A DNA stretch of 64,000 nt from Armatimonadota bacterium. GTDB taxonomy: Bacteria > Armatimonadota > Hebobacteria > CAIYQO01. The first letter of the stretch is position 1, and every line of letters begins with the position of its first letter. Location of the stretch: the NCBI GenBank assembly GCA_020060775.1, contig JAGUZN010000220.1, positions 984 to 64,983 of the forward strand. Reading direction: 5' to 3'. Positions 8,299 through 62,427 of this stretch are shown one piece after another. The position numbers and the translations under genes are program-made. A model generated the notes under the pieces. The model was not told the origin of the DNA and searched no databases. It saw only the letters and a program-made list of their open reading frames with translations.

Positions 8299-8561
8299 TA
8301 ACTGAGTCTTATCGGAAGCTAGAATAGCTTCGAGCTCAGAATAGAGTCAAGTCGCGCCAGTTCAATCCTAAATGTGTTCCCCCTCGGGCTGTCCCCAGCC
8401 GTCATCCTCTGCATTTTCTACCCGAAATGCCTCTAGGCGAGTACGTTTGGCTACACATTTTGCCCTGGAGGTGCCATGTGTTCACGACAGATCGGTTTCT
8501 AGCTTCCGTTAAGACTCAGATATGAGCTACAACGTGTCTGGTAACACCGGTAGGGGGCAGG

Positions 8562-38309: not shown

Positions 38310-39698
38310 ATAACGTAGGATATTTTTCGCACTTTCACCGAGGGGTTGCGGTGTAGCCCTTTCGCTGAGTAGAGTGTAAGCGCCAACTTACCATACTCAC
38401 GAAAGGGACTACACACGATGAACACTACGACAATCACTGGTGAGAGTCAAGCCCAAGCCGGGCTGGTGACGATCAATGAGGGGGAGCTGCGGGCGCATCT
38501 CGACCAGATCGTCACCGGCGCGGTGGAAGAGACGCTGAACCAATTGCTTGACGCGGAAGCGGAGGCGTTGTGCCAGGCGCGACGCTATGAGCGGACGGCG
38601 ACGCGGCAAGATACGCGGGCCGGGCATTACGCGCGTAAGCTCCAGACGCGGGCGGGCGAGGTGACGCTGAAGGTGCCGAAACTGCGGCAGCTGACCTTTG
38701 AGACGGCGATCATCGAGCGCTACCAGCGCCGGGAAGCCTCGGTGGAAGAGGCGCTGATCGAGATGTACCTCGCCGGGGTGAGCGTCCGGCGGGTGGAAGA
38801 CATCACCGAGGCGCTGTGGGGCACGAAGGTGAGCGCCTCGACGGTGAGTGACTTGAATCAGAAGCTCTACCTGCGCCTGGACGACTGGTTGGCCCGTCCG
38901 TTGACCGGGGACTTTGCCTACGTCTATCTGGACGGGCTCTGGCTGAAGAAGAGTTGGGGCGGCGAGGTGCAGACGGTCTCGGTGCTGGTGGCGGTGGGGG
39001 TGAGCGCCGACGGCTACCGGGAGATCCTGGGAGTCGCCGAAGGCATGAAGGAGGATACCGCAAGTTGGCGGGACTTCCTGCGGGGGATGAGGGCGCGGGG
39101 ATTGCAGGGTATCCGGCTGGTGGTCTCCGATTGCTGCCTGGGGCTGGTGGAGGCGCTGGGCGAGGTCTTCCCCGAGGCTGCTTGGCAGCGGTGCGTGGTG
39201 CACTTCTACCGCAATGTGCTGGGACAGGTGCCGCGGGGTAAGAGCCGGGAGGTGGCGACGATGCTGAAGGCGATTCATGCCCAGGAGGATCGCACGGCTG
39301 CCCTGCAGAAAGCAGAGGATGTCGCCGGGAAACTCCGGGGGCTGAAGCTGGAGAAGGCGGCCAAGGTGCTCCAAGCGGGCATCGCCGATACGCTGGCGTA
39401 CTATGCCTTCCCGAGTGAGCACTGGCGGAGTCTGCGTACGAATAATCCGTTGGAACGACTGAATCGAGAGATCCGTCGGCGGACCCGCGTGGTGGGCTGT
39501 TTCCCCGATGGCCGCTCGGCGGTGATGCTGGTGACCGCGCGCCTGCGGTATCTGGCCAGTAAAGACTGGGGGACCAAGCGGTATTTGAACATGCAACGCC
39601 TCTGGGACGCGGCGCCTTCCGGGGAGGAGGGCGCGTAGCGCGGAGGACAATCAGGCGCTCATACTCTACAAAAAGTGCGAAAAACTCTGGACACTACC
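38310..39698 (+). mobile_element. IS256-family insertion sequence, about 1.39 kb, apparently intact.
   Basis: Single Mutator-type transposase ORF. Imperfect terminal inverted repeats sharing TTTTTCGCACTTT (left 38323..38335; right reverse complement at 39672..39684). Left end 'GATAACGTAGG' resembles the IS256 IRL start. Confidence 0.75.
38418..39638 (+). CDS. IS256-family (Mutator-type) transposase.
   Basis: 'YVYLDGLWLK..AVGVSADGYREILG' and the characteristic IS256 N-terminus 'HLDQIVTGAVEETLNQLLDAEAEALCQARRYERT'. Confidence 0.88.
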   Translation: MNTTTITGESQAQAGLVTINEGELRAHLDQIVTGAVEETLNQLLDAEAEALCQARRYERTATRQDTRAGHYARKLQTRAGEVTLKVPKLRQLTFETAIIERYQRREASVEEALIEMYLAGVSVRRVEDITEALWGTKVSASTVSDLNQKLYLRLDDWLARPLTGDFAYVYLDGLWLKKSWGGEVQTVSVLVAVGVSADGYREILGVAEGMKEDTASWRDFLRGMRARGLQGIRLVVSDCCLGLVEALGEVFPEAAWQRCVVHFYRNVLGQVPRGKSREVATMLKAIHAQEDRTAALQKAEDVAGKLRGLKLEKAAKVLQAGIADTLAYYAFPSEHWRSLRTNNPLERLNREIRRRTRVVGCFPDGRSAVMLVTARLRYLASKDWGTKRYLNMQRLWDAAPSGEEGA

Positions 39699-39707
39699 TT
39701 TTTGAGG
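39699..39707. repeat. Right copy of the target-site duplication (TTTTTGAGG).
   Basis: See the left copy at 38301..38309. Confidence 0.55.
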
Positions 39708-40242
39708 TGGTTTTCGCTGGTCGTGGGGGAGGGGGGAACGGAAATATAACCGAGAGAGGAACATGGCAAAGAACATGTACGGTAAACCCGGAACTGACCG
39801 CCAAAAGAGGAACAATTTTATACTCAGCGGCTTGATGTGTTAATCGGCGTTTCGGGGTTAGGCCCCTGCGGAGCCACACCCCTTTCGCCAGCCAACTGCT
39901 TATAGCATTAGGTTAACCGACCGTCGGAGATCATCCGGCGGTTTTTTCGTGTTTGTGAGCACGAATTCTCTCTCGGCGAGAGATTTCAGGTACTTACCTT
40001 AGCACTACACGCGCCCCCCATCGCCACCCCATCTCTCCGAAATTGCCCACTTCTCTCTGCCGCTCTGAGAGGTTCTCTCTGTCCGGTTAACAGCATGCGG
40101 AAATGATTTTCAAAATGCGGAAAAAGTGTATACCGGGGTGGAAAAGTTGTAAAACAAGGGTGGAGAAACTGCTGACTGTTGAGTCATCGACGATGTCTAC
40201 TGTCCTACTTAAGCATATGCGTATTTTGGGAGAAGGGGTGAC

Positions 40243-41010
40243 ATGGGATGGAAGCGAAAGTATAATGATCTTATCGTGAAATCACCTACCTTGTTGAGGT
40301 ATTATGCTTCATCGAAGGGTATATCAATGTCACCAACTATTGGGCATCATTCAGAATTACCGCTTACGACCGAGCAAGTATTAGCGCTGACGCGCATAGT
40401 GTTTCTCGATCCAGTCGACCCTGTGCCGTGCGACTTGATTTTCATTTTCGGTGGAACGCATCCTGGGGCGTGGGAGGCAGGAGCCGAAGCTTACTTTAAC
40501 GGATTAGGGCAGCAAATCTTTGTGGTTGGCGGTATTCCCCGAAATCCGAAAGCACCGCATGTTTCCTGGACGGGCGAGGACCGCTTCGTCCCTAATTGCC
40601 GGCGAATTGCGACTAATCTGATTCGCCTTGGTGTCCCAGAACATGTCATCAGTTGCGACGAGCGTCCATTGAATTCCTACGAAGAGGCAATGTGCCTCCG
40701 TGCATTCATTGGTACTCACCCGGAAATCGTCAGTGTGCTCTTTATCTCAAAAGGCTGGGGAATCGGTCGGCAATTTCGTACGTTACACCACAACCTGCCT
40801 GGTGACATTGTATTGGTGCCATACCCCTTTGAAACTAACCTTGGTGAGGGTGAAGCTGTCACACGGGAAAATTGGGCTGACAGCCCACAGGGTAGAGCGA
40901 TGGTTATTGCAGAATACAACCGCATACTAACTTATGGAAAACAGGGCGGTCTCACACCGTTGGCGTCTCCGGTTGTTGGGTTAGAAGACATAAGACTATC
41001 GCATCTGTAG
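40243..41010 (+). CDS. DUF218 (YdcF/SanA-like) domain protein.
   Basis: 'DERPLNSYEEAMCLRAFI' resembles the DUF218 ES..NT.EN motif. Moderately AT-rich. Confidence 0.45.
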   Translation: MGWKRKYNDLIVKSPTLLRYYASSKGISMSPTIGHHSELPLTTEQVLALTRIVFLDPVDPVPCDLIFIFGGTHPGAWEAGAEAYFNGLGQQIFVVGGIPRNPKAPHVSWTGEDRFVPNCRRIATNLIRLGVPEHVISCDERPLNSYEEAMCLRAFIGTHPEIVSVLFISKGWGIGRQFRTLHHNLPGDIVLVPYPFETNLGEGEAVTRENWADSPQGRAMVIAEYNRILTYGKQGGLTPLASPVVGLEDIRLSHL

Positions 41011-41462: not shown

Positions 41463-41657
41463 TTATGCCTCCTCAATGTGTTGTGCGGCCAGTTGTTGGG
41501 CGCTGGTCATCTCATCGTATAATGCGGCGATGCCGGTGGGGCGGAAGGTGATGCCGATCTTCCCGGTGCTCGCGGTGAAGTCGATCTGCTCAATGAGCAA
41601 ACGCAGGATGCGTGCGCGCTCGACGCGGTAGAGGACATCCCAGACCGGATCGAACAA
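41463..41657 (-). CDS. Small hypothetical protein upstream of the ParB-like gene.
   Basis: 64-aa ORF, 3 nt from the next start. No motif. Confidence 0.25.
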   Translation of the reverse strand: MFDPVWDVLYRVERARILRLLIEQIDFTASTGKIGITFRPTGIAALYDEMTSAQQLAAQHIEEA

Positions 41658-41680: not shown

Positions 41681-41797
41681 TAATACGGTGACACGTAATA
41701 CGGTGACAGGTTAGTAATACTGTGACAGGTTATGTATTTCGCGTAATACGGTGACAGGTTATGTATTTCGCAATAATAGCTAACCTGTCATCGTATT
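41681..41797. repeat. Array of four direct and one inverted copy of an 18-bp unit (TAATACGGTGACAGGTTA). Putative iteron, operator or centromere-like site.
   Basis: Units at 41681, 41696, 41716 and 41744. An inverted copy lies within 41772..41797. Units 3 and 4 share the extension ATGTATTTCGC. Confidence 0.7.
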
Positions 41798-41907: not shown

Positions 41908-42699
41908 TTGGCCGTGACCGAATCTATTCACACCATGAGGAGATTTCCCGAAATGGACATTCCCCGGATCTTCAATATCACTGAAAGCGCTCACCGCATC
42001 CATAACCCGTTTACACCCGACAAGCTCGCTAGGCTCGGCGAGGCGCTGCGTCTGGAAAGGGGGACCCGCGTGCTCGACCTCGGCAGCGGTTCGGGGGAGA
42101 TGCTGTGCACCTGGGCACGTGATCACGGAGTCATCGGCACCGGCATCGACATGAGCCAATTGTTCACGGAGCACGCGAAAATCCGCGCTAAAGAACTCGG
42201 CGTCGCCGATCAAGTCCAGTTCATCCATGACGATGCTGCCGGCTACGTCGCCGACGAAAAGGTCGATGTGGCAGCCTGTGTCGGCGCCACGTGGATCGGC
42301 GGTGGAGTCCCCGGCACGATCGAGCTGCTGGCACAGAGCCTCAGCACCGGAGGGATCATCCTCATCGGCGAGCCCTACTGGCGGCAGTTACCGCCGACGG
42401 ACGATGTTGTCAAAGGGTGTCATGCCCATTCAATCTCCGACTATCTCATACTGCCTGAACTACTCGCGTCGTTCGGCCGCCTTGGCTATGATGTCGTGGA
42501 AATGGTGCTGGCTGACCAGGATGCCTGGGACAGATACGAGGCGGCCAAATGGCTCACCATGCGCCGATGGCTTGATGCCAATCCCGACGATGAGCTCGCG
42601 AACGATGTCCGAGTCCAACTGACCTCGGAACCTGAGCGCTACGCCACGTACACGCGTGAATATATGGGCTGGGGCGTGTTCGCACTGATGGCGCGGTGA
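41908..42699 (+). CDS. Class I SAM-dependent methyltransferase.
   Basis: 'VLDLGSGSGEMLCTWA'. Confidence 0.7.
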   Translation: MAVTESIHTMRRFPEMDIPRIFNITESAHRIHNPFTPDKLARLGEALRLERGTRVLDLGSGSGEMLCTWARDHGVIGTGIDMSQLFTEHAKIRAKELGVADQVQFIHDDAAGYVADEKVDVAACVGATWIGGGVPGTIELLAQSLSTGGIILIGEPYWRQLPPTDDVVKGCHAHSISDYLILPELLASFGRLGYDVVEMVLADQDAWDRYEAAKWLTMRRWLDANPDDELANDVRVQLTSEPERYATYTREYMGWGVFALMAR

Positions 42700-42762: not shown

Positions 42763-43404
42763 ATGCCGAACGTTGTCATTTTTGGAGCGAATGGGCTGAC
42801 TGGCCAGCAGCTCATCACACAGATGCTGGCCAAGGGGTGGAGCGTCACGGGAGCCGTACGTCGGCCGGAAACGCTGGAAGCCTTTGGCTCGCAGATTACT
42901 GTCAAGCAGATCGCTTTTAATAACGATGACAGTATTCGGAGTGCCGTCTCCGGACAGGATGTCGTCGTTTCTGCACTTGGATCTGGAGGACTCCGCGAGT
43001 CAGCGCGACCCACCAATCTATATAGCACGTCGATCAAAGCAATCACCAACGCCATGCTGGAGCAACGTATCTCTCGCGTGTATACGATCTCTTCCGGGGG
43101 CGTCGAGTATGATGCGGGTGCCCCCTGGTACTTCCGAGCTTTGCTTAGGCCGTACTTGATTAACAACTACCTCGACATGATGAAGATGGAGACGATCCTC
43201 GAAGAATCCCCATCGCTGATCGAGTGGACTATTGTCCGTCCAACTTATCTGCTGGATGGCCCGTCCAGACAGTATCTGGTGAGCGACCGGACACTTGGTA
43301 CAGGGTCATTCAAAATTCACCGGGTGGACGTGGCAGCCTTTATTATCCAGGATATCGAACGCGGGGAATGGATCCGTAAGCATCCCGTGCTTGGATACCC
43401 GTGA
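42763..43404 (+). CDS. NAD(P)-binding Rossmann protein (NmrA / atypical SDR-like).
   Basis: 'MPNVVIFGANGLTGQQLI' (GxxGxxG). GGAGGG RBS. Confidence 0.62.
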   Translation: MPNVVIFGANGLTGQQLITQMLAKGWSVTGAVRRPETLEAFGSQITVKQIAFNNDDSIRSAVSGQDVVVSALGSGGLRESARPTNLYSTSIKAITNAMLEQRISRVYTISSGGVEYDAGAPWYFRALLRPYLINNYLDMMKMETILEESPSLIEWTIVRPTYLLDGPSRQYLVSDRTLGTGSFKIHRVDVAAFIIQDIERGEWIRKHPVLGYP

Positions 43405-43604
43405 TCTTCATTGGGAAATGCTTGCATCAGCGAGTGGCTGTGACAGCGGATGGTCGGAGCGTTTTCGCATGCATGCTCGATTAGGACCCTGATACCGTTG
43501 CCGCCAAGCGAGAGACCCTATTCTCTACAATCTGAATACTGATCAGGTTAACTGCCGACGCGGGCAAGGTGTGGAACGATGGTGGTTTTAGGTGACCCCA
43601 GTGT

Positions 43605-43785
43605 CCTAAAAACTGTTTTGAAAGTCTCTATCCGGTCTCGCTTGATCTTTTCGCGGCGGTCCCTGCCGGGCCTCCTCACCCTATCGGCCCTGGATAGTAC
43701 CTCGTCGTCCCGGCAGGGACCGCCGCGAACATCTACGGCGCGATCCGCGAACAGATCCTTTCAAAACAATTTCTAAGATATGCGA
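43605..43785. repeat. Nested-palindrome element of about 170-180 bp, copy A (MITE/REP-like or structured RNA).
   Basis: Outer inverted repeats AAAACTGTTTTGAAAG / CTTTCAAAACAATTT. Inner 19-bp stem CGCGGCGGTCCCTGCCGGG / CCCGGCAGGGACCGCCGCG. About 85% identical to copy B at 62210..62375. Confidence 0.7.
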
Positions 43786-44151: not shown

Positions 44152-44484
44152 ATGCCAGGTGGAGATGGAACAGGCCCAGCGGGAGTGGGCCCGATGACGG
44201 GGCGAGGAGCCGGCTACTGCGCCGGCGCCGGTGTTGCGGGAAGCGCATCGCTGATCCCCGGTCGCGGACGCGGCATGGGGCTTGGCCGGGGTTTCGGTCG
44301 TGGCGTGTGTCGCGGTCTCGGATGGATTGGCGTCCTTGCGGCCGGCGGCTTGCTCGCTCGCACATTGTTCGGTTCGGCATCGAGAGCCGATGAAAAGGCC
44401 CTGTTGACCGAACAGGCCAGGAATATGGAAGGCGCGCTCGCCAATATCAAGCAGCGCCTGAGTGAACTTGACAAAGACGAGTGA
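44152..44484 (+). CDS. DUF5320-like small protein (Gly-rich N-terminus, C-terminal coiled coil).
   Basis: N-terminus 'MPGGDGTGPAGVGPMTGRGAGYCAG' is typical of the DUF5320 family that travels with NifX-like/MinD-like Fe-S gene clusters. Confidence 0.5.
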   Translation: MPGGDGTGPAGVGPMTGRGAGYCAGAGVAGSASLIPGRGRGMGLGRGFGRGVCRGLGWIGVLAAGGLLARTLFGSASRADEKALLTEQARNMEGALANIKQRLSELDKDE

Positions 44485-44547
44485 TCCCCGTGCTGCCTGA
44501 CCGGCAGTTCTGGCTGGTCAGGCAGCGTGACACCAGGAGTGCCAGTT

Positions 44548-45393
44548 ATGCGCATCGCCATCGCCAGCGGGAAAGGCGGCACCGGAAAGACCACGGTGGC
44601 CGTCAATCTTGCGCGCATCCTCTGCCGCCGGGAGGCGGTGCAATACGTGGATTGCGATGTCGAGGAACCTAATGGTCATCTTTTCCTCACGCCGTCGATC
44701 ACGCAGACGGCACCGGTGACGATCCCTGTCCCCGACGTGCGCGACGATCGCTGTACGCATTGTGGGGCGTGCAGTCAACTCTGCCAGTATCATGCCATCG
44801 CCGTGCTCAATCACATGACGCTGGTGTTCCCGGAGCTCTGTCACGGCTGCGGCGGGTGCGCCCGCGTCTGCCCGGAGCAGGCCATCAGCGAGGTGGGGCG
44901 TCCCATCGGGGTTGTCGAACGTGGGATGGCCGGCAGCGTGGCGTTTGTGCACGGGCGGCTGAATGTGGGCGAAGCGATGAGCCCGCCGCTGATACGGGCG
45001 GTGCAGGCGTTGGCGGACCCACAGGCGACCGTCATTCTCGATGCGCCGCCGGGTACCTCCTGTCCGGTCATCGCCGCGATTCGCCCGAGCGACGCGGTGG
45101 TGCTGGTCACCGAGCCGACCGCCTTCGGTCTGCATGACCTGACGCTGGCGGTGGAGATGGTGCGCGTGCTCTCTCGTCCCATGGGTGTGGTGCTCAACCG
45201 CGCGGATATGGGTGATGACCGTGTCGAGCAGTTTTGCGCGCGGGAAGGCATTCCCATTTGGGGGCGCATTCCGCATGACCGGCGGATTGCCGAGGCCTAC
45301 TCGCGAGGGGAGATCGCCGTTGATGTCCTTCCGGACACCATACCCTTTTTTGCGGCCGTTATCGATGCCATCCGAAGTGAGGTGCCGGCATGA
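44548..45393 (+). CDS. MinD/Mrp-superfamily P-loop ATPase with two 4Fe-4S ferredoxin-type motifs.
   Basis: Deviant Walker A 'IASGKGGTGKTTV'. 'CTHCGACSQLCQ' and 'CHGCGGCARVCP'. Confidence 0.72.
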   Translation: MRIAIASGKGGTGKTTVAVNLARILCRREAVQYVDCDVEEPNGHLFLTPSITQTAPVTIPVPDVRDDRCTHCGACSQLCQYHAIAVLNHMTLVFPELCHGCGGCARVCPEQAISEVGRPIGVVERGMAGSVAFVHGRLNVGEAMSPPLIRAVQALADPQATVILDAPPGTSCPVIAAIRPSDAVVLVTEPTAFGLHDLTLAVEMVRVLSRPMGVVLNRADMGDDRVEQFCAREGIPIWGRIPHDRRIAEAYSRGEIAVDVLPDTIPFFAAVIDAIRSEVPA

Positions 45394-46298
45394 GAGAGAT
45401 TGTGATCATCAGCGGCAAGGGGGGCACGGGGAAAACGAGCGTGACGGCAGCCTTTGCCAGTATAGCCCCACGTGCTGTGCTGGTGGACTGCGATGTCGAT
45501 GCCGCCGACCTGCACCTCATTCTCACCCCCACCGTGCAGGAGACGCATGAATTTTATGGCGGCAACACCGCACGCATCGCACAGGAGCGTTGCCGGCGGT
45601 GCGGGATATGCGTTGACGTGTGCCGCTTCGGCGCGGTCTTCACTGACTCTCGTGAGACTGACGATGATCGAGCTGCGGTGTACGCGATCGATCCGATCGC
45701 CTGTGAGGGGTGCGGTGTCTGTGCACATCTGTGTCCCCATCAGGCCATTGCCTTTACCGAGGCCCTCAACGGCCACTGGTTCCACTCTGACACCCGCATG
45801 GGCCCCATGGTGCATGCGCGGCTGGGCGTGGCGGAAGAGAACTCGGGAAAGCTGGTGACGCTCATTCGGCGTGAAGCGCGCGCCCTGGCCGAGGCCCAGG
45901 GGCATGATCTGATCCTGGTGGACGGCCCGCCGGGCATCGGGTGTCCGGTGATCGCTTCACTGTCAGGCGCCGATCACGTGGTGATTGTGACCGAGCCGAC
46001 GGTTTCCGGCAGTCACGATATGGCACGCGTGGTCTCGCTGGCTGCACACTTCAACGTGCCGGCCAGCGTCATCATCAATAAAGCGGATCTCAATCGGGAT
46101 AAAGCCGCGGAGATTGTGCACTATGCACTGGCGCACCGGATCGGCGTACTGGGTGAGATTCCGTATGATTCGGTGATCACGCGCGCGCAACTCGCCGGCC
46201 TCAGTGTGATCGAGTATGGCGATAATCCGGCGAGTGATGCATTGCGCACGATCTGGAGCCGGCTGCAGCAGCATATGGCAACAGAATGTGTTCGATGA
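45390..46298 (+). CDS. Second MinD/Mrp-superfamily P-loop ATPase with 4Fe-4S motifs (paralog of the upstream gene).
   Basis: 'ISGKGGTGKTSV'. 'CRRCGICVDVCR' and 'CEGCGVCAHLCP'. 4-nt overlap with the upstream gene. Confidence 0.72.
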   Translation: MREIVIISGKGGTGKTSVTAAFASIAPRAVLVDCDVDAADLHLILTPTVQETHEFYGGNTARIAQERCRRCGICVDVCRFGAVFTDSRETDDDRAAVYAIDPIACEGCGVCAHLCPHQAIAFTEALNGHWFHSDTRMGPMVHARLGVAEENSGKLVTLIRREARALAEAQGHDLILVDGPPGIGCPVIASLSGADHVVIVTEPTVSGSHDMARVVSLAAHFNVPASVIINKADLNRDKAAEIVHYALAHRIGVLGEIPYDSVITRAQLAGLSVIEYGDNPASDALRTIWSRLQQHMATECVR

Positions 46299-53278: not shown

Positions 53279-53595
53279 ACCGGATGATGGCACACGCCAG
53301 GCCCCGCGCTTTCCGCATCTCGGTGGGGCGGGGCCTGGCGGTTGCAGTCATCCGCCCCCAACTCCCCCTGCCTGCGGAATTTGCACAGCTTAACCGCCAT
53401 CCCCGCCGTTCTCAAGAAAAGTGTCGTAAAGCTGCACATATTCCCTTGACAAGAGGTGCAACACTGGAGGCGATCACTGTCCACGCTGTCGTTTCGCCGG
53501 TCATGTACCTGGTCGCGCGGGGATCGGTTACACACAGCGTGCGCTCGGTGAACATACGAGAACACTGTCACAGGGAACAAAAGGAGGATCTCCCT

Positions 53596-58631: not shown

Positions 58632-61600
58632 ATGTTTCTCAAACGATTAGAGTTGTACGGATTCAAAACCTTTGCCGACCGCACCGAGCTGGAACTGGGT
58701 CCCGGCATCACGGCGATCGTGGGCCCCAATGGCTCAGGCAAAAGCAATATCAGCGATGCCATCCTCTGGGTGCTCGGCGAGCAAAGCACCAAAGCCCTGC
58801 GCAGCGCGCGGTCGACCGATGTCATCTTCAAGGGGTCGGAGTCGCGCAAGGCGCTGGGCATGGCCGAGGTCAACCTCACGCTCGACAACGAGCACGGCGA
58901 TCTCCCCATCGATTATAACGAGGTCACCGTCACCCGCTGCGTCTTCCGCTCCGGCGAGTCCGAGTACCTGATCAACCGCACCCCGGTGCGCCTGCGCGAT
59001 GTCCATGAACTGTTTATGGACACCGGCATCGGCAAGCACTCGTATTCCATCATCAGCCAGGGTGAAGTGGATGCCGTGCTTTCTTCGCGCTCGGAAGACC
59101 GTCGCGCGCTCTTTGAAGAGGTGGCGGGCATCACGAAGTACAAGCACCGCAAAAAGGAAGCCCTGCGCAAGCTCGAGCAAACACAGCAGAACCTGTTGCG
59201 CGTGAGCGATATCATCAACGAACTGGAATCACAGCTCGAGCCCATGGCCGCGCAATCGGAAAAAGCCAGGCAGTATCAGGTGCTCAACGCCGAACTCACC
59301 GACCTCCACCTTTCGCTGGTCGTCGCACAGTACCAGGGGTTGCAGGGCAGCCTGGCGCGTTCGCGCGAACGGGAAGCCGAACTGCACCAGGAACTCGAGC
59401 AGTTGCGCCATACCCTGCAGCAGGCTGAAGTGAAAGAGACGACCTTGCGCGCCGCGTTGCAGCAACTCGAGGACGAGTTGGAGGAACGGCGCGGCGTGGA
59501 GAATCGCCTGGCGGCAGCCGTGCAGGGCACGGAGAGCAAGCTTGCGTTGCTCAAACAACAGGAAGATGTCGCGCGTAAAGAGTGTGAACGCATTGAGCGC
59601 GAACGCGGCGAGGGCGAGCAACAGGCCGAAGCGCTGCAGTGCGAAATTGACACCGCCGAGCAGGAGCAGGCGCGTTTGCAGGAGATCATCGCCGGCCTCG
59701 AGGGGGAAATCGCCGCGGCGGATGATACGCTGAAAGAGGCCACTGCCGCGGTGGAAGCGGTCGCGCAACAACTCCATGAGCGGCGCGGCGCTTACCTCGA
59801 CGCCCTTGACCAGGTGGCGAAAGTGCGCAATGAACTGGCGCGCCTGGATTCGATGCTGAAAACCTCAGACGGGCGTTTGACGCGCATTGCCGAGGAACGT
59901 CGTGAAGTCGACGGCAAACTCGCTGCCCGGCGAGCAGAGAAGCAGACCGCCGATGCCCGCGTCCACGCGTGTAAAACCGCGCGCGAGTCCCTCATCGCCA
60001 GGCGTAATGAAGTGAATGCTGCCCGCCAGGCTGCCGTGGAACAGCAGGCAGAAGCGCGACAGCAGGAACATCGCCTGCGCGAAGGATTGGCCGGCTTGCG
60101 CGAGCGCCAGCGCACCCTGCAGGAATTGGAAGATTCGCTGGAAGGTTACTTTCCCGGCGTACGCGCGGTGATGGCGGCCGCACAGTCGGGCACGTTGGCC
60201 GGCTGGTATGCGCCGGTTACCGAATTGATCAATGTGCCCGCCGAGCTGGAGACGGCCGCGGAAGTCGCGCTCGGCGCGAATTTACAAGACGTGGTGACCG
60301 ATGGCGAGCAATCCGCGAAAGCGGCGATTTCCCTGCTGAAGCGCGCCAACGCGGGGCGCGCGACGTTCCTGCCGATGGATCTGATCTCCCCCGCTCCCCG
60401 GGCGACCGTGCCGGACATGGATGGCGTACTCGGTCTGTTCATGGATTTAGTGGGCTACGACCACCAGCATGAGCGCGTGGTGCAGCATATTATGGGGCGC
60501 GTGATCGTCGCGCGTGATCTGGATGCCGCGCTCGCCGCCGCCAAATCGCCGCACGCCAGCGGGTGGAATCGCATCGTCACGCTGGAAGGCGAGGTTGTCC
60601 ATCCCTCGCGCGCCATGACCGGTGGTTCGAAGGGACGGGGCAGCGGGCTGCTCACGCGCAAACGCGAACTGCAGGAACTCACCGAGCAACTGGAGACGCT
60701 GGAGCGCAAAGCGCAACAGGCGCACACGCGATATCAGGAGATTACCGCCGAGCTGCAGCGCCTGGAGGGCGAGGTGGTCCGCGTTGCCAAGCAGAGCGAA
60801 CAGGCGGCAGCGCAGCAAGCGGAGGCCGAACGCGCGGTGGCGACCGTGCAGCGCGACGTGCAGGCGCTGGATGAACGCCTCGGCGCTCTCGATGAAGAGA
60901 CCGCGTGGATCACGCGGGAGGTGGAGGAAACCCGCGCCGACCATCAGCGCTTGCTCGAGTCGCTGGCCGAAACCGAGGGACGCCAACGCGAGGCCGAGCA
61001 GGCCATTGCCGAGGCGGAGGGGACACTGGCGGCAGAACAGCGCGAGCGCGATACGGTGACCGAGCGGTTTGCCGCGCTGCGCTTAACACTGACCGAAGTG
61101 CGCGGACAGTGGCAAACCCAGCAGGCGGCAGCACGTCGGGCATCGGAGCAACGCGAAGCCCTGCACCAGCGGCTGCAGCAGCATGACAGCACGACCGCGC
61201 GGTTAGCCGAGGAGATCGCCCAACTGTGCGCGAAGCACACCGACGCCGCGGCTGAACTCGAGCGCCAGCGCGCTGCCCTGCAGAAAAGCGGGACGGATCT
61301 GGAGGGGGCGCGGGGACGGCGCACCGCCATGCTCGAGGCCATCGCCGCCAGCCTGGAAGCGCAGAAGGCCCTGCGCGAACAGGTGGAGGGCTGCCAGGAC
61401 CGCGTGCACCGCACGGATTTGCGCACCACGCAGATCGAGACGGAGCTCGGCTTCCTGGAGACGCAGTTCTTCGAGGATTACCGCCTCACCACCGAACAGG
61501 CGATTGTCCGCGCGAAACCGGTGGAACACCGCGGCGTGGCCATCGCCCGCATGAAGGAATTGCAGGCCGCCGTCGATGAGTTGGGCACCGTCAATTTGGG

Positions 61601-62204
61601 GGCCATCGAGGAGTACGACCGCATCTGCGAGCGCTTATCCTTTCTCACCGCCCAGCGCACTGATCTGGAAGAAGGGCGCGCCAGCCTGCTGAAGGTGATT
61701 GTCGAGATCGACACGACGTGCAAGGAAAAATTCCTCGAGGCCTTTGCCGCGATCGCCCGCGAGTTTCAGGACCTGTTTGCGCAACTCTTCGGCGGCGGCA
61801 CGACGCAACTCACCCTGGAAGACCCGGCGAACGTGTTGGAGAGCGGCATCGAGATTCATGTCACCATCCCGGGAAAGCGCAATCAGCATCTCCTGCAGCT
61901 CTCCGGGGGGGAGCGGGCGCTCACTGCGCTGGCGTTGCTGTTTGCCATGTTGCGCGTGAAGCCCAGCCCCTTCGTGGTGCTCGACGAGATCGACGCGCCT
62001 CTCGACGAAGCCAATGTCGGGCGCTATTGCGATGTACTGCTCGGCTTCACCGACCGCACCCAGTTCCTGGTGGTGACCCACAACAAGGGCACCATGGAGG
62101 CTGCCGACGTCCTGTACGGCGTCACCATGGAAAAGGCCGGGGTGTCCAAGATCATCGGCGTCCGCCTGTCCGACGGCCAGCAGACCCTGCCCGTCACTGC
62201 CTAA
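58632..62204 (+). CDS. smc: Chromosome segregation protein SMC.
   Basis: N-terminal Walker A 'FKTFADRTELELGPGITAIVGPNGSGKSNI'. Long coiled coils with central hinge 'AGWYAPVTELINVP'. C-terminal signature 'LSGGERALTALALLFAM..VLDEIDAPLDE'. Confidence 0.95.
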   Translation: MFLKRLELYGFKTFADRTELELGPGITAIVGPNGSGKSNISDAILWVLGEQSTKALRSARSTDVIFKGSESRKALGMAEVNLTLDNEHGDLPIDYNEVTVTRCVFRSGESEYLINRTPVRLRDVHELFMDTGIGKHSYSIISQGEVDAVLSSRSEDRRALFEEVAGITKYKHRKKEALRKLEQTQQNLLRVSDIINELESQLEPMAAQSEKARQYQVLNAELTDLHLSLVVAQYQGLQGSLARSREREAELHQELEQLRHTLQQAEVKETTLRAALQQLEDELEERRGVENRLAAAVQGTESKLALLKQQEDVARKECERIERERGEGEQQAEALQCEIDTAEQEQARLQEIIAGLEGEIAAADDTLKEATAAVEAVAQQLHERRGAYLDALDQVAKVRNELARLDSMLKTSDGRLTRIAEERREVDGKLAARRAEKQTADARVHACKTARESLIARRNEVNAARQAAVEQQAEARQQEHRLREGLAGLRERQRTLQELEDSLEGYFPGVRAVMAAAQSGTLAGWYAPVTELINVPAELETAAEVALGANLQDVVTDGEQSAKAAISLLKRANAGRATFLPMDLISPAPRATVPDMDGVLGLFMDLVGYDHQHERVVQHIMGRVIVARDLDAALAAAKSPHASGWNRIVTLEGEVVHPSRAMTGGSKGRGSGLLTRKRELQELTEQLETLERKAQQAHTRYQEITAELQRLEGEVVRVAKQSEQAAAQQAEAERAVATVQRDVQALDERLGALDEETAWITREVEETRADHQRLLESLAETEGRQREAEQAIAEAEGTLAAEQRERDTVTERFAALRLTLTEVRGQWQTQQAAARRASEQREALHQRLQQHDSTTARLAEEIAQLCAKHTDAAAELERQRAALQKSGTDLEGARGRRTAMLEAIAASLEAQKALREQVEGCQDRVHRTDLRTTQIETELGFLETQFFEDYRLTTEQAIVRAKPVEHRGVAIARMKELQAAVDELGTVNLGAIEEYDRICERLSFLTAQRTDLEEGRASLLKVIVEIDTTCKEKFLEAFAAIAREFQDLFAQLFGGGTTQLTLEDPANVLESGIEIHVTIPGKRNQHLLQLSGGERALTALALLFAMLRVKPSPFVVLDEIDAPLDEANVGRYCDVLLGFTDRTQFLVVTHNKGTMEAADVLYGVTMEKAGVSKIIGVRLSDGQQTLPVTA

Positions 62205-62209
62205 GAAAC

Positions 62210-62375
62210 TGTTATGAACGTCTCTGTCCGGTCTCGCGTGATCTGTTCGCGCCAGTCCGTATCGGGACTCCTCACCCTATCGGTCTTGGAGAGTACCTCG
62301 GCGTCCCGATACGGACGGCTACGAACATCCACGGCGCGATCCGCGAACAGATCCTTTCACAACAATTTCTAACAC
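62210..62375. repeat. Nested-palindrome element, copy B (see 43605..43785).
   Basis: Begins 3 nt after the smc stop. Inner stem GTCCGTATCGGGA / TCCCGATACGGAC carries compensatory changes relative to copy A. Confidence 0.7.
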
Positions 62376-62427
62376 AGAGGCGCCGCTCAACGCGACGCCT
62401 CAGAATCATTCCGCCTGCCGCAGCGCC

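Follow-up and report, generated by a model that had tools for sequence, protein, structure and literature searches.

SMC homologues assign the window (the whole 64-kb stretch of DNA analysed here) to an uncultured lineage of Armatimonadota; one recorded contig carries an identical SMC, and the next best homologue is 69% identical. A repeat search of the window returned a single direct-repeat family; its two members, each 178 nt long, occupy 43599-43776 and 62195-62372 and share 84% identity without gaps. MAFFT alignments of the two members, copies A and B, concur with the repeat search (84-86% identity). Over the 164 or 165 bp of the element proper the copies are about 86% identical, a divergence of 14%, which bears out the value of about 85% given in the preliminary description. 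The two copies are found at unrelated loci 18.6 kb apart, and their flanks are unrelated to each other. The element has a G+C content of 57%, the same as that of the window, and its ends are richer in A+T.

Copy A is situated in a 747-nt gene-free gap, 203 nt past an NAD(P)H-binding gene (ending at 43404) and 375 nt before a DUF5320 gene (starting at 44152). Copy B occupies most of a 223-nt gap between the convergent smc gene (58632-62204) and a xylose-isomerase-like TIM-barrel gene. The preliminary description had placed both copies immediately downstream of a gene; this is correct for copy B and holds only loosely for copy A. The parts of the element and its borders are as follows.

43610-43773, no strand assigned: copy A, element proper, 164 bp, full-length imperfect palindrome (repeat search, nhmmer, covariance model, folds)
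43607-43609, no strand assigned: copy A, left candidate target-site duplication TAA (alternatively CTAA, 43606-43609); homology with copy B begins here
43609-43624, + strand: copy A, left terminal inverted repeat, AAAACTGTTTTGAAAG, one mismatch to the consensus GAAAYTGTTWTGAAMG (pattern search, inverted repeat I3)
43650-43729, no strand assigned: copy A, inner hairpin, arms 43650-43670 and 43709-43729, 21 perfect bp, 38-nt loop with CTCCTCACCCTATCGG (inverted repeat I8, 100% complementary; folds)
43758-43773, - strand: copy A, right terminal inverted repeat, GAAATTGTTTTGAAAG on the - strand (pattern search)
43774-43776, no strand assigned: copy A, right candidate target-site duplication TAA (alternatively CTAA, 43773-43776); homology with copy B stops here
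62205-62369, no strand assigned: copy B, element proper, 165 bp (repeat search, nhmmer and covariance-model matches, folds)
62202-62204, no strand assigned: copy B, left candidate target-site duplication TAA, identical with the smc stop codon (alternatively CTAA, 62201-62204; ORF end and in-register comparison)
62205-62220, + strand: copy B, left terminal inverted repeat, GAAACTGTTATGAACG (pattern search)
62244-62327, no strand assigned: copy B, inner hairpin with 82% complementary arms (62244-62271, 62300-62327), in which the three compensated pairs and four uncompensated breaks are found on comparison with copy A (inverted repeat I5, pair tables)
62354-62369, - strand: copy B, right terminal inverted repeat, GAAATTGTTGTGAAAG on the - strand (pattern search)
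62370-62372, no strand assigned: copy B, right candidate target-site duplication TAA (alternatively CTAA, 62369-62372; in-register comparison)

Several other features were observed in the window. Downstream of copy A, an operon at 44152-46298 encodes the DUF5320 protein and, after it, two P-loop ATPases of the MinD/ParA type, of which the first, at least, has inserted 4Fe-4S ferredoxin domains. This set of DUF5320 and MinD/ferredoxin genes is typical of anaerobes. The region from 31000 to 41000 is apparently accessory or mobile, with an AbiEii toxin gene (31090-31917), an IS256/Mutator transposase gene and several ORFs without a Pfam match. It also contains a 66-nt inverted repeat (73%) at 31576-31641 and 33117-33182, and a stretch at 34-38 kb, holding a sodium:solute symporter gene, in which G+C falls to 40-45% against the mean of 57%. 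At 41682-41797, between a 64-aa ORF (41463-41657, - strand, no Pfam match) and a methyltransferase gene (41908-42699), there are five copies of the 17-nt motif AATACGGTGACAGGTTA, four direct and one inverted, where 0.06 would be expected by chance. The copies are irregularly spaced (15-36 nt from start to start), and the first two overlap by 2 nt. This array resembles an operator, an iteron set or a group of binding sites of a transposon end. A 26-nt inverted repeat at 8299-8522 (TAACTGAGTCTTATCGGAAGCTAGAA and TTCTAGCTTCCGTTAAGACTCAGATA, 92% complementary, around 172 nt) may bound a second, unrelated small element. Also, a G+C-rich hairpin stands alone at 53281-53354, with arms of 27 nt (85% complementary) around a 20-nt loop; its sequence is unrelated to that of the element.

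The borders of the two copies are sharp. In an in-register comparison, the likeness between them ends rightward exactly after CAATTTC TAA and leftward at CC TAA. Each of the two copies has a direct repeat of TAA on each side, which can also be read as CTAA. The exact ends of the element are ambiguous by one base at the left, where copy A is without the terminal G that is present in copy B; a TAA duplication with G-terminal repeats implies that this G was lost in copy A, and a CTAA duplication implies that it was gained in copy B. The host sequence just to the left of the insertions is also alike, reading CAGTGTCC before TAA in copy A (43599-43606) and CACTG-CC before TAA in copy B (62195-62201). 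The shared CA[G/C]TG(T)CC is native smc coding sequence at copy B; the transposase may prefer a wider target, or the likeness may be fortuitous.

The left border of copy B coincides with the end of smc. Copy B had been described as starting 3 nt after the smc stop; in fact, the stop TAA itself lies inside the repeat, and the element proper begins directly after it. The SMC tail, ...LPVTA, resembles the ...EPVAAG and ...EPVGTG of relatives, so what precedes copy B belongs to the native gene and not to the element. The insertion of copy B would have targeted the smc stop codon and left the SMC protein unaltered. For copy A, removal of the element together with one TAA restored no recognisable gene.

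Terminal inverted repeats of 16 nt, with the consensus GAAAYTGTTWTGAAMG, bound both copies and coincide with the ends of the homology. When GAAAYTGTTWTGAAMG was searched with up to three mismatches, four matches were obtained in 64 kb, all of them element ends, against a chance expectation of 1.4. An element of 164/165 bp (within the range of about 50-500 bp) that has no coding capacity, carries inverted repeats at its exact ends and is flanked by direct repeats corresponds to a MITE. MITEs are known to have terminal inverted repeats, flanking direct repeats and long stable stem-loops, and to contain no transposase (PMC3184786). The short length, the missing coding capacity, the terminal and direct repeats, the unrelated sites and the stable stem-loop together make up the anatomy of a bacterial MITE, and the two repeats are probably copies of such a non-coding element in this uncultured Armatimonadota bacterium. 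Duplication of an intergenic palindrome that is neither mobile nor functional, by chance or as part of a segment, would accord with there being just two copies and none elsewhere in the collections searched. It is, however, a most improbable account of 178 nt at 84% identity between flanks that are unrelated on both sides, of precise boundaries marked by a direct repeat and inverted repeats, and of fold z-scores down to -11.

The TA-centred duplication of 3-4 bp points to a DDE transposase of the IS5 type. IS5-family derivatives use TA-centred targets of 3-4 bp (YTAA or CTAG), and CTAA/TAA is found at both copies. IS5-family ends such as GAGACTGTTGCA resemble GAAACTGTT of the element (PMC4596501), and GAAACTGTT agrees at 8/9 positions with the GAGACTGTT of an IS5-type P. 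gingivalis end, a comparison drawn from one table and carrying no statistics (PMC4596501). Target-site duplications of 3 bp are also made by PIF/Harbinger, the eukaryotic relatives of IS5 (PMC2213677), and plant MITEs prefer TA or TAA targets (PMC5172404). The sole transposase in the window (38418-39638) belongs to the IS256/Mutator family, and the GAAAYTGTTWTGAAMG motif is absent from its surroundings; no transposase bearing the terminal repeats of the element was found within the 64-kb window.

Each copy folds into one long imperfect hairpin that is far more stable than shuffled sequence (z from -6 to -11). The RNA fold of the + strand has a free energy of -87.2 kcal/mol for copy A (z = -9.3) and -76.8 kcal/mol for copy B (z = -6.4), and that of the - strand is -103.5 kcal/mol (z = -11.2) and -99.2 kcal/mol (z = -10.1) respectively. 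The DNA fold of copy A is -47.3 kcal/mol (z = -9.1). In these folds the two ends of the element pair with each other along its whole length, and no separate end hairpins are formed. The inner stems noted earlier, TCCCTGCCGGG/CCCGGCAGGGA in copy A and GTCCGTATCGGGA/TCCCGATACGGAC in copy B, are present exactly as quoted, and the loop sequence reported as conserved is identical in both copies. A small stem inside the loop is not conserved between them.

A fold-back of this kind could also be moved as single-stranded DNA by an HUH/Y1 transposase, in a REPIN/RAYT-like or IS200/IS605-derived manner, with CTAA as a cleavage or target tetranucleotide instead of a duplication. The whole element is one fold-back whose arms appear to co-evolve, and CTAA at the left flank and the right end would mimic the target and the right-end cleavage site of the IS200/IS605 type. 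Arm co-evolution has been reported for REPINs. However, the inverted repeats of the element reach the termini and its ends pair, whereas IS200/IS605 elements have separate subterminal hairpins; a single palindrome of 165 bp is unlike REP units of 20-40 nt; and no Y1 transposase was seen among the proteins scanned in the partly annotated window. Movement by an HUH enzyme is thus very unlikely. As specific identities, a REPIN or REP-RAYT system, which consists of doublets of 20-40-nt REP units and has neither DDE-type terminal inverted repeats nor a target duplication, is contradicted by the single 165-bp palindrome, the inverted repeats reaching the termini and the flanking direct repeats, and an IS200/IS605-derived palindrome by the full-length pairing of the left end with the right.

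The pairing was compared between copies A and B over the 53 pairs of the main hairpin. Most pairs (42/53) are invariant. Six are altered on one side: three of these survive on the - strand as G-U pairs, and the others are broken. The other five are altered on both sides: three are Watson-Crick compensated (C-G to G-C, G-C to A-T and C-G to T-A), one changes from T-A to G-T, which pairs on the - strand only, and one is broken. The earlier statement that both arms had changed with pairing preserved is therefore confirmed for three Watson-Crick double changes. In a permutation that placed the 16 observed substitutions randomly over the 106 paired positions as independent sites, the probability of at least five double-sided changes was 0.0005 and that of at least three Watson-Crick compensated pairs was 0.003-0.006. 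The shuffle control of the covariation tool gave 37/500, and this control is nearly powerless with two sequences. The arms of the element do not evolve independently.

The three compensated pairs are confined to a run of four adjacent base pairs, so that one or two multi-base events may have produced them all. Adjoining them in the same stem, copy B has four uncompensated breaks, one of which is the double change that does not pair. With the compensated changes clustered in this way and four breaks beside them, selection on the hairpin is no more than plausible. Replication template-switching in quasipalindromes copies one arm onto the other (PMC7202029), and such correction between arms could give the same pattern without selection. 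The compensatory changes had been called the signature of selection; the excess of double-sided changes is significant under independent sites, but the clustering, the breaks in copy B, the sample of two sequences and the template-switching alternative weaken that conclusion.

If the hairpin itself were the selected unit of a fold-back mobile element, either through an obligatory single-stranded DNA intermediate or as a - strand RNA hairpin used by the host or the element (e.g. an RNase III-processed 3'-UTR), the concerted change of the arms despite 14% divergence would be explained. This is an unlikely reading; were it true, the element would be the first of its sort to be characterised in Armatimonadota. 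Also unlikely is a structured non-coding RNA or regulatory hairpin (a 3'-UTR stabiliser, bidirectional terminator or sRNA), that is, a paralogous pair under selection for RNA pairing and possibly a domesticated MITE. The very stable hairpin, which is more stable on the - strand, the excess of double-sided, pair-preserving changes and the position of copy B between convergent genes all favour an RNA, and bcr1 of Bacillus offers the precedent of a transcribed mobile repeat with compensatory changes (PMC3184786). Four of the five wobble-type changes retain pairing on the - strand only, but this bias of 4 versus 1 is not significant (binomial P of about 0.19). The uncompensated breaks in copy B and the small loop stem that differs between the copies also argue against an RNA, which would in addition leave the terminal inverted repeats and flanking direct repeats unexplained.

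Searches for known RNAs and signals bear on the same question. Rfam gave no match at gathering thresholds in the whole window, and over copy A only generic hairpin matches, far below threshold, were obtained at E<=10; no Rfam family was thus recovered even at that level. No sigma-70-like promoter was scored at copy A or B. An intrinsic (Rho-independent) terminator was rejected since no U-tract site was scored at either copy; the sole terminator-like site nearby, at 62380-62393 on the - strand, is outside the element. The preliminary description had offered either an RNA hairpin, as a terminator or sRNA, or a MITE-like DNA hairpin. The second alternative is supported by the terminal inverted repeats and flanking TAA/CTAA, which that description did not mention, and the first finds no support in the U-tract and Rfam results.

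Three other identities were tried and rejected. The integron attC core motifs R'' (RYYYAAC) and R' (GTTRRRY) are both absent from both strands of both copies and from the roughly 10-20 nt that flank each copy on either side, which argues against an attC site. A template or variable repeat of a DGR was rejected because the differences between A and B are not adenine-specific. A protein-coding mini-gene was also rejected: the sole frame open in both copies differs at 16/55 residues and has no homologue and no Pfam match. The concatenated six-frame translations of both copies, which could also have caught spurious ORF calls over other copies, had no match among 5.8 billion proteins.

Further copies of the element were sought in several collections. 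A BLASTN search of both copies against plasmids and phages gave no match. The exact seed CCGCGAACAGATCCTTTCA had six matches in 185,579 species genomes, all confined to 19-22 nt around the seed, and the exact seed CGATCCGCGAACAGATCCTT had two in the JGI metagenomes, limited to the seed; both results are attributed to chance. The seeds in these two large scans were an exact 19-mer and 20-mer from the right arm only, and the scans did not return the window's own contig, so they say little on the copy number in the source genome. Three scans of viral contigs, with loop, left-arm and right-end patterns, yielded one 16-mer match without further similarity. A covariance model, as proposed in the preliminary description, was built from the two copies (R1); when it and an nhmmer profile were run on the window plus some 115 kb of sequence surrounding smc in four related lineages of Armatimonadota, copies A and B were recovered and no further copy. 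Exact look-ups of SMC, its identical database entry, the downstream isomerase and the IS256 transposase, which could have led to further contigs of the organism, gave no record. In total, two copies were found in 64 kb and no third in any collection searched, all of which lack the source contig. Across these collections, the element family is not widespread.

In the relatives, smc is followed by unrelated sequence without the element; the closest available ones have 66-69% SMC identity, and synteny is not conserved. The absence of a copy from their 115 kb and the unrelated 3' regions of smc fit a lineage-specific insertion. Every relative examined has its own gene order past smc, and on one related Armatimonadota contig (L013, 13986-15818) PemK and PIN/PhdYeFM toxin-antitoxin genes are located there. 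The junction downstream of smc is apparently variable within the lineage.

Among known MITEs, MITEPsy1 of Pseudomonas syringae pv. phaseolicola derives from ISPsy2 of the IS5 family and makes a 4-nt duplication at CTAG or YTAA; its transposition was demonstrated by experiment (PMC3189936). Like MITEPsy1, the present element is small and non-coding, has terminal inverted repeats (16 nt, compared with 18 nt in MITEPsy1), is flanked in both copies by CTAA, and, in the collections searched, appears to combine a low copy number with a restricted host range. It differs in its length (165 nt, against 100 nt for MITEPsy1) and shares no detectable sequence similarity. MITEPsy1 has also not been described as a full-length palindrome. 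In addition, the parent IS of MITEPsy1 is known and its transposition has been seen, whereas the present element is known from sequence alone.

Chunjie of Geobacter uraniireducens and Nezha of cyanobacteria likewise have terminal inverted repeats and flanking direct repeats, and are mostly intergenic and sometimes abut genes (PMC3184786). Chunjie is of similar size (178-235 bp), and its predicted RNA stem-loops of -98 to -130 kcal/mol compare with -77 to -104 kcal/mol here (PMC3184786). However, it has 9-bp direct repeats and is A+T-rich (PMC3184786), in contrast to the 3-4-bp TAA/CTAA and host-like G+C of the Armatimonadota element. The bcr1 repeat of the Bacillus cereus group is also mobile and measures about 155 bp; compensatory changes maintain its RNA structure, but some copies have lost stability (PMC3184786), a mixture that is also seen between A and B. 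Unlike the present element, bcr1 has 5-bp direct repeats and a cruciform-like structure of several stems, and it is known to be transcribed (PMC3184786); the two have no sequence similarity. Tourist-like MITEs and PIF/Harbinger share the 3-bp TAA target-site duplication and short terminal inverted repeats (PMC5172404, PMC2213677), but they are eukaryotic, high-copy and A+T-rich, so that the kinship is one of mechanism only and not of family. A crude word search found no literature report of MITEs in Armatimonadota. The element is most likely a known, common kind of selfish DNA and not a new kind of RNA gene. It has no sequence relative in the collections searched.

As a MITE, the element would depend for its movement on a DDE transposase acting in trans, probably an IS5-family enzyme, whose gene would be found elsewhere in the genome. 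This enzyme would bind both ends and insert the element at TAA/CTAA by a staggered cut of 3-4 bp, the repair of which would duplicate the target. At copy B the target would have been the smc stop codon, with the gene left intact. Since the whole element is a palindrome, a read-through transcript or single-stranded DNA could fold into a hairpin of about 55-65 bp, which may incidentally stabilise or punctuate neighbouring mRNAs; no host function would be needed as an explanation. The paired changes in the inner stem may have arisen by selection on the fold-back, at the level of the element or of the RNA, or by template-switch correction between the arms.

If the element is a MITE, two intergenic regions of an uncultured Armatimonadota genome would be transposon insertions and not regulatory RNAs, which is mainly a matter of annotation. 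It opens no long-standing question; the point worth following is the concerted change of the arms across many copies. More copies could test whether the arms of palindromic MITEs are kept complementary by selection or by replication-templated correction. The element family could also serve as a marker for strain typing or insertion polymorphism. Copy B would illustrate the use of a stop codon as an insertion target without damage to smc, and the presence of a MITE would imply that an active or recently active transposase, probably of the IS5 type, exists in this lineage.
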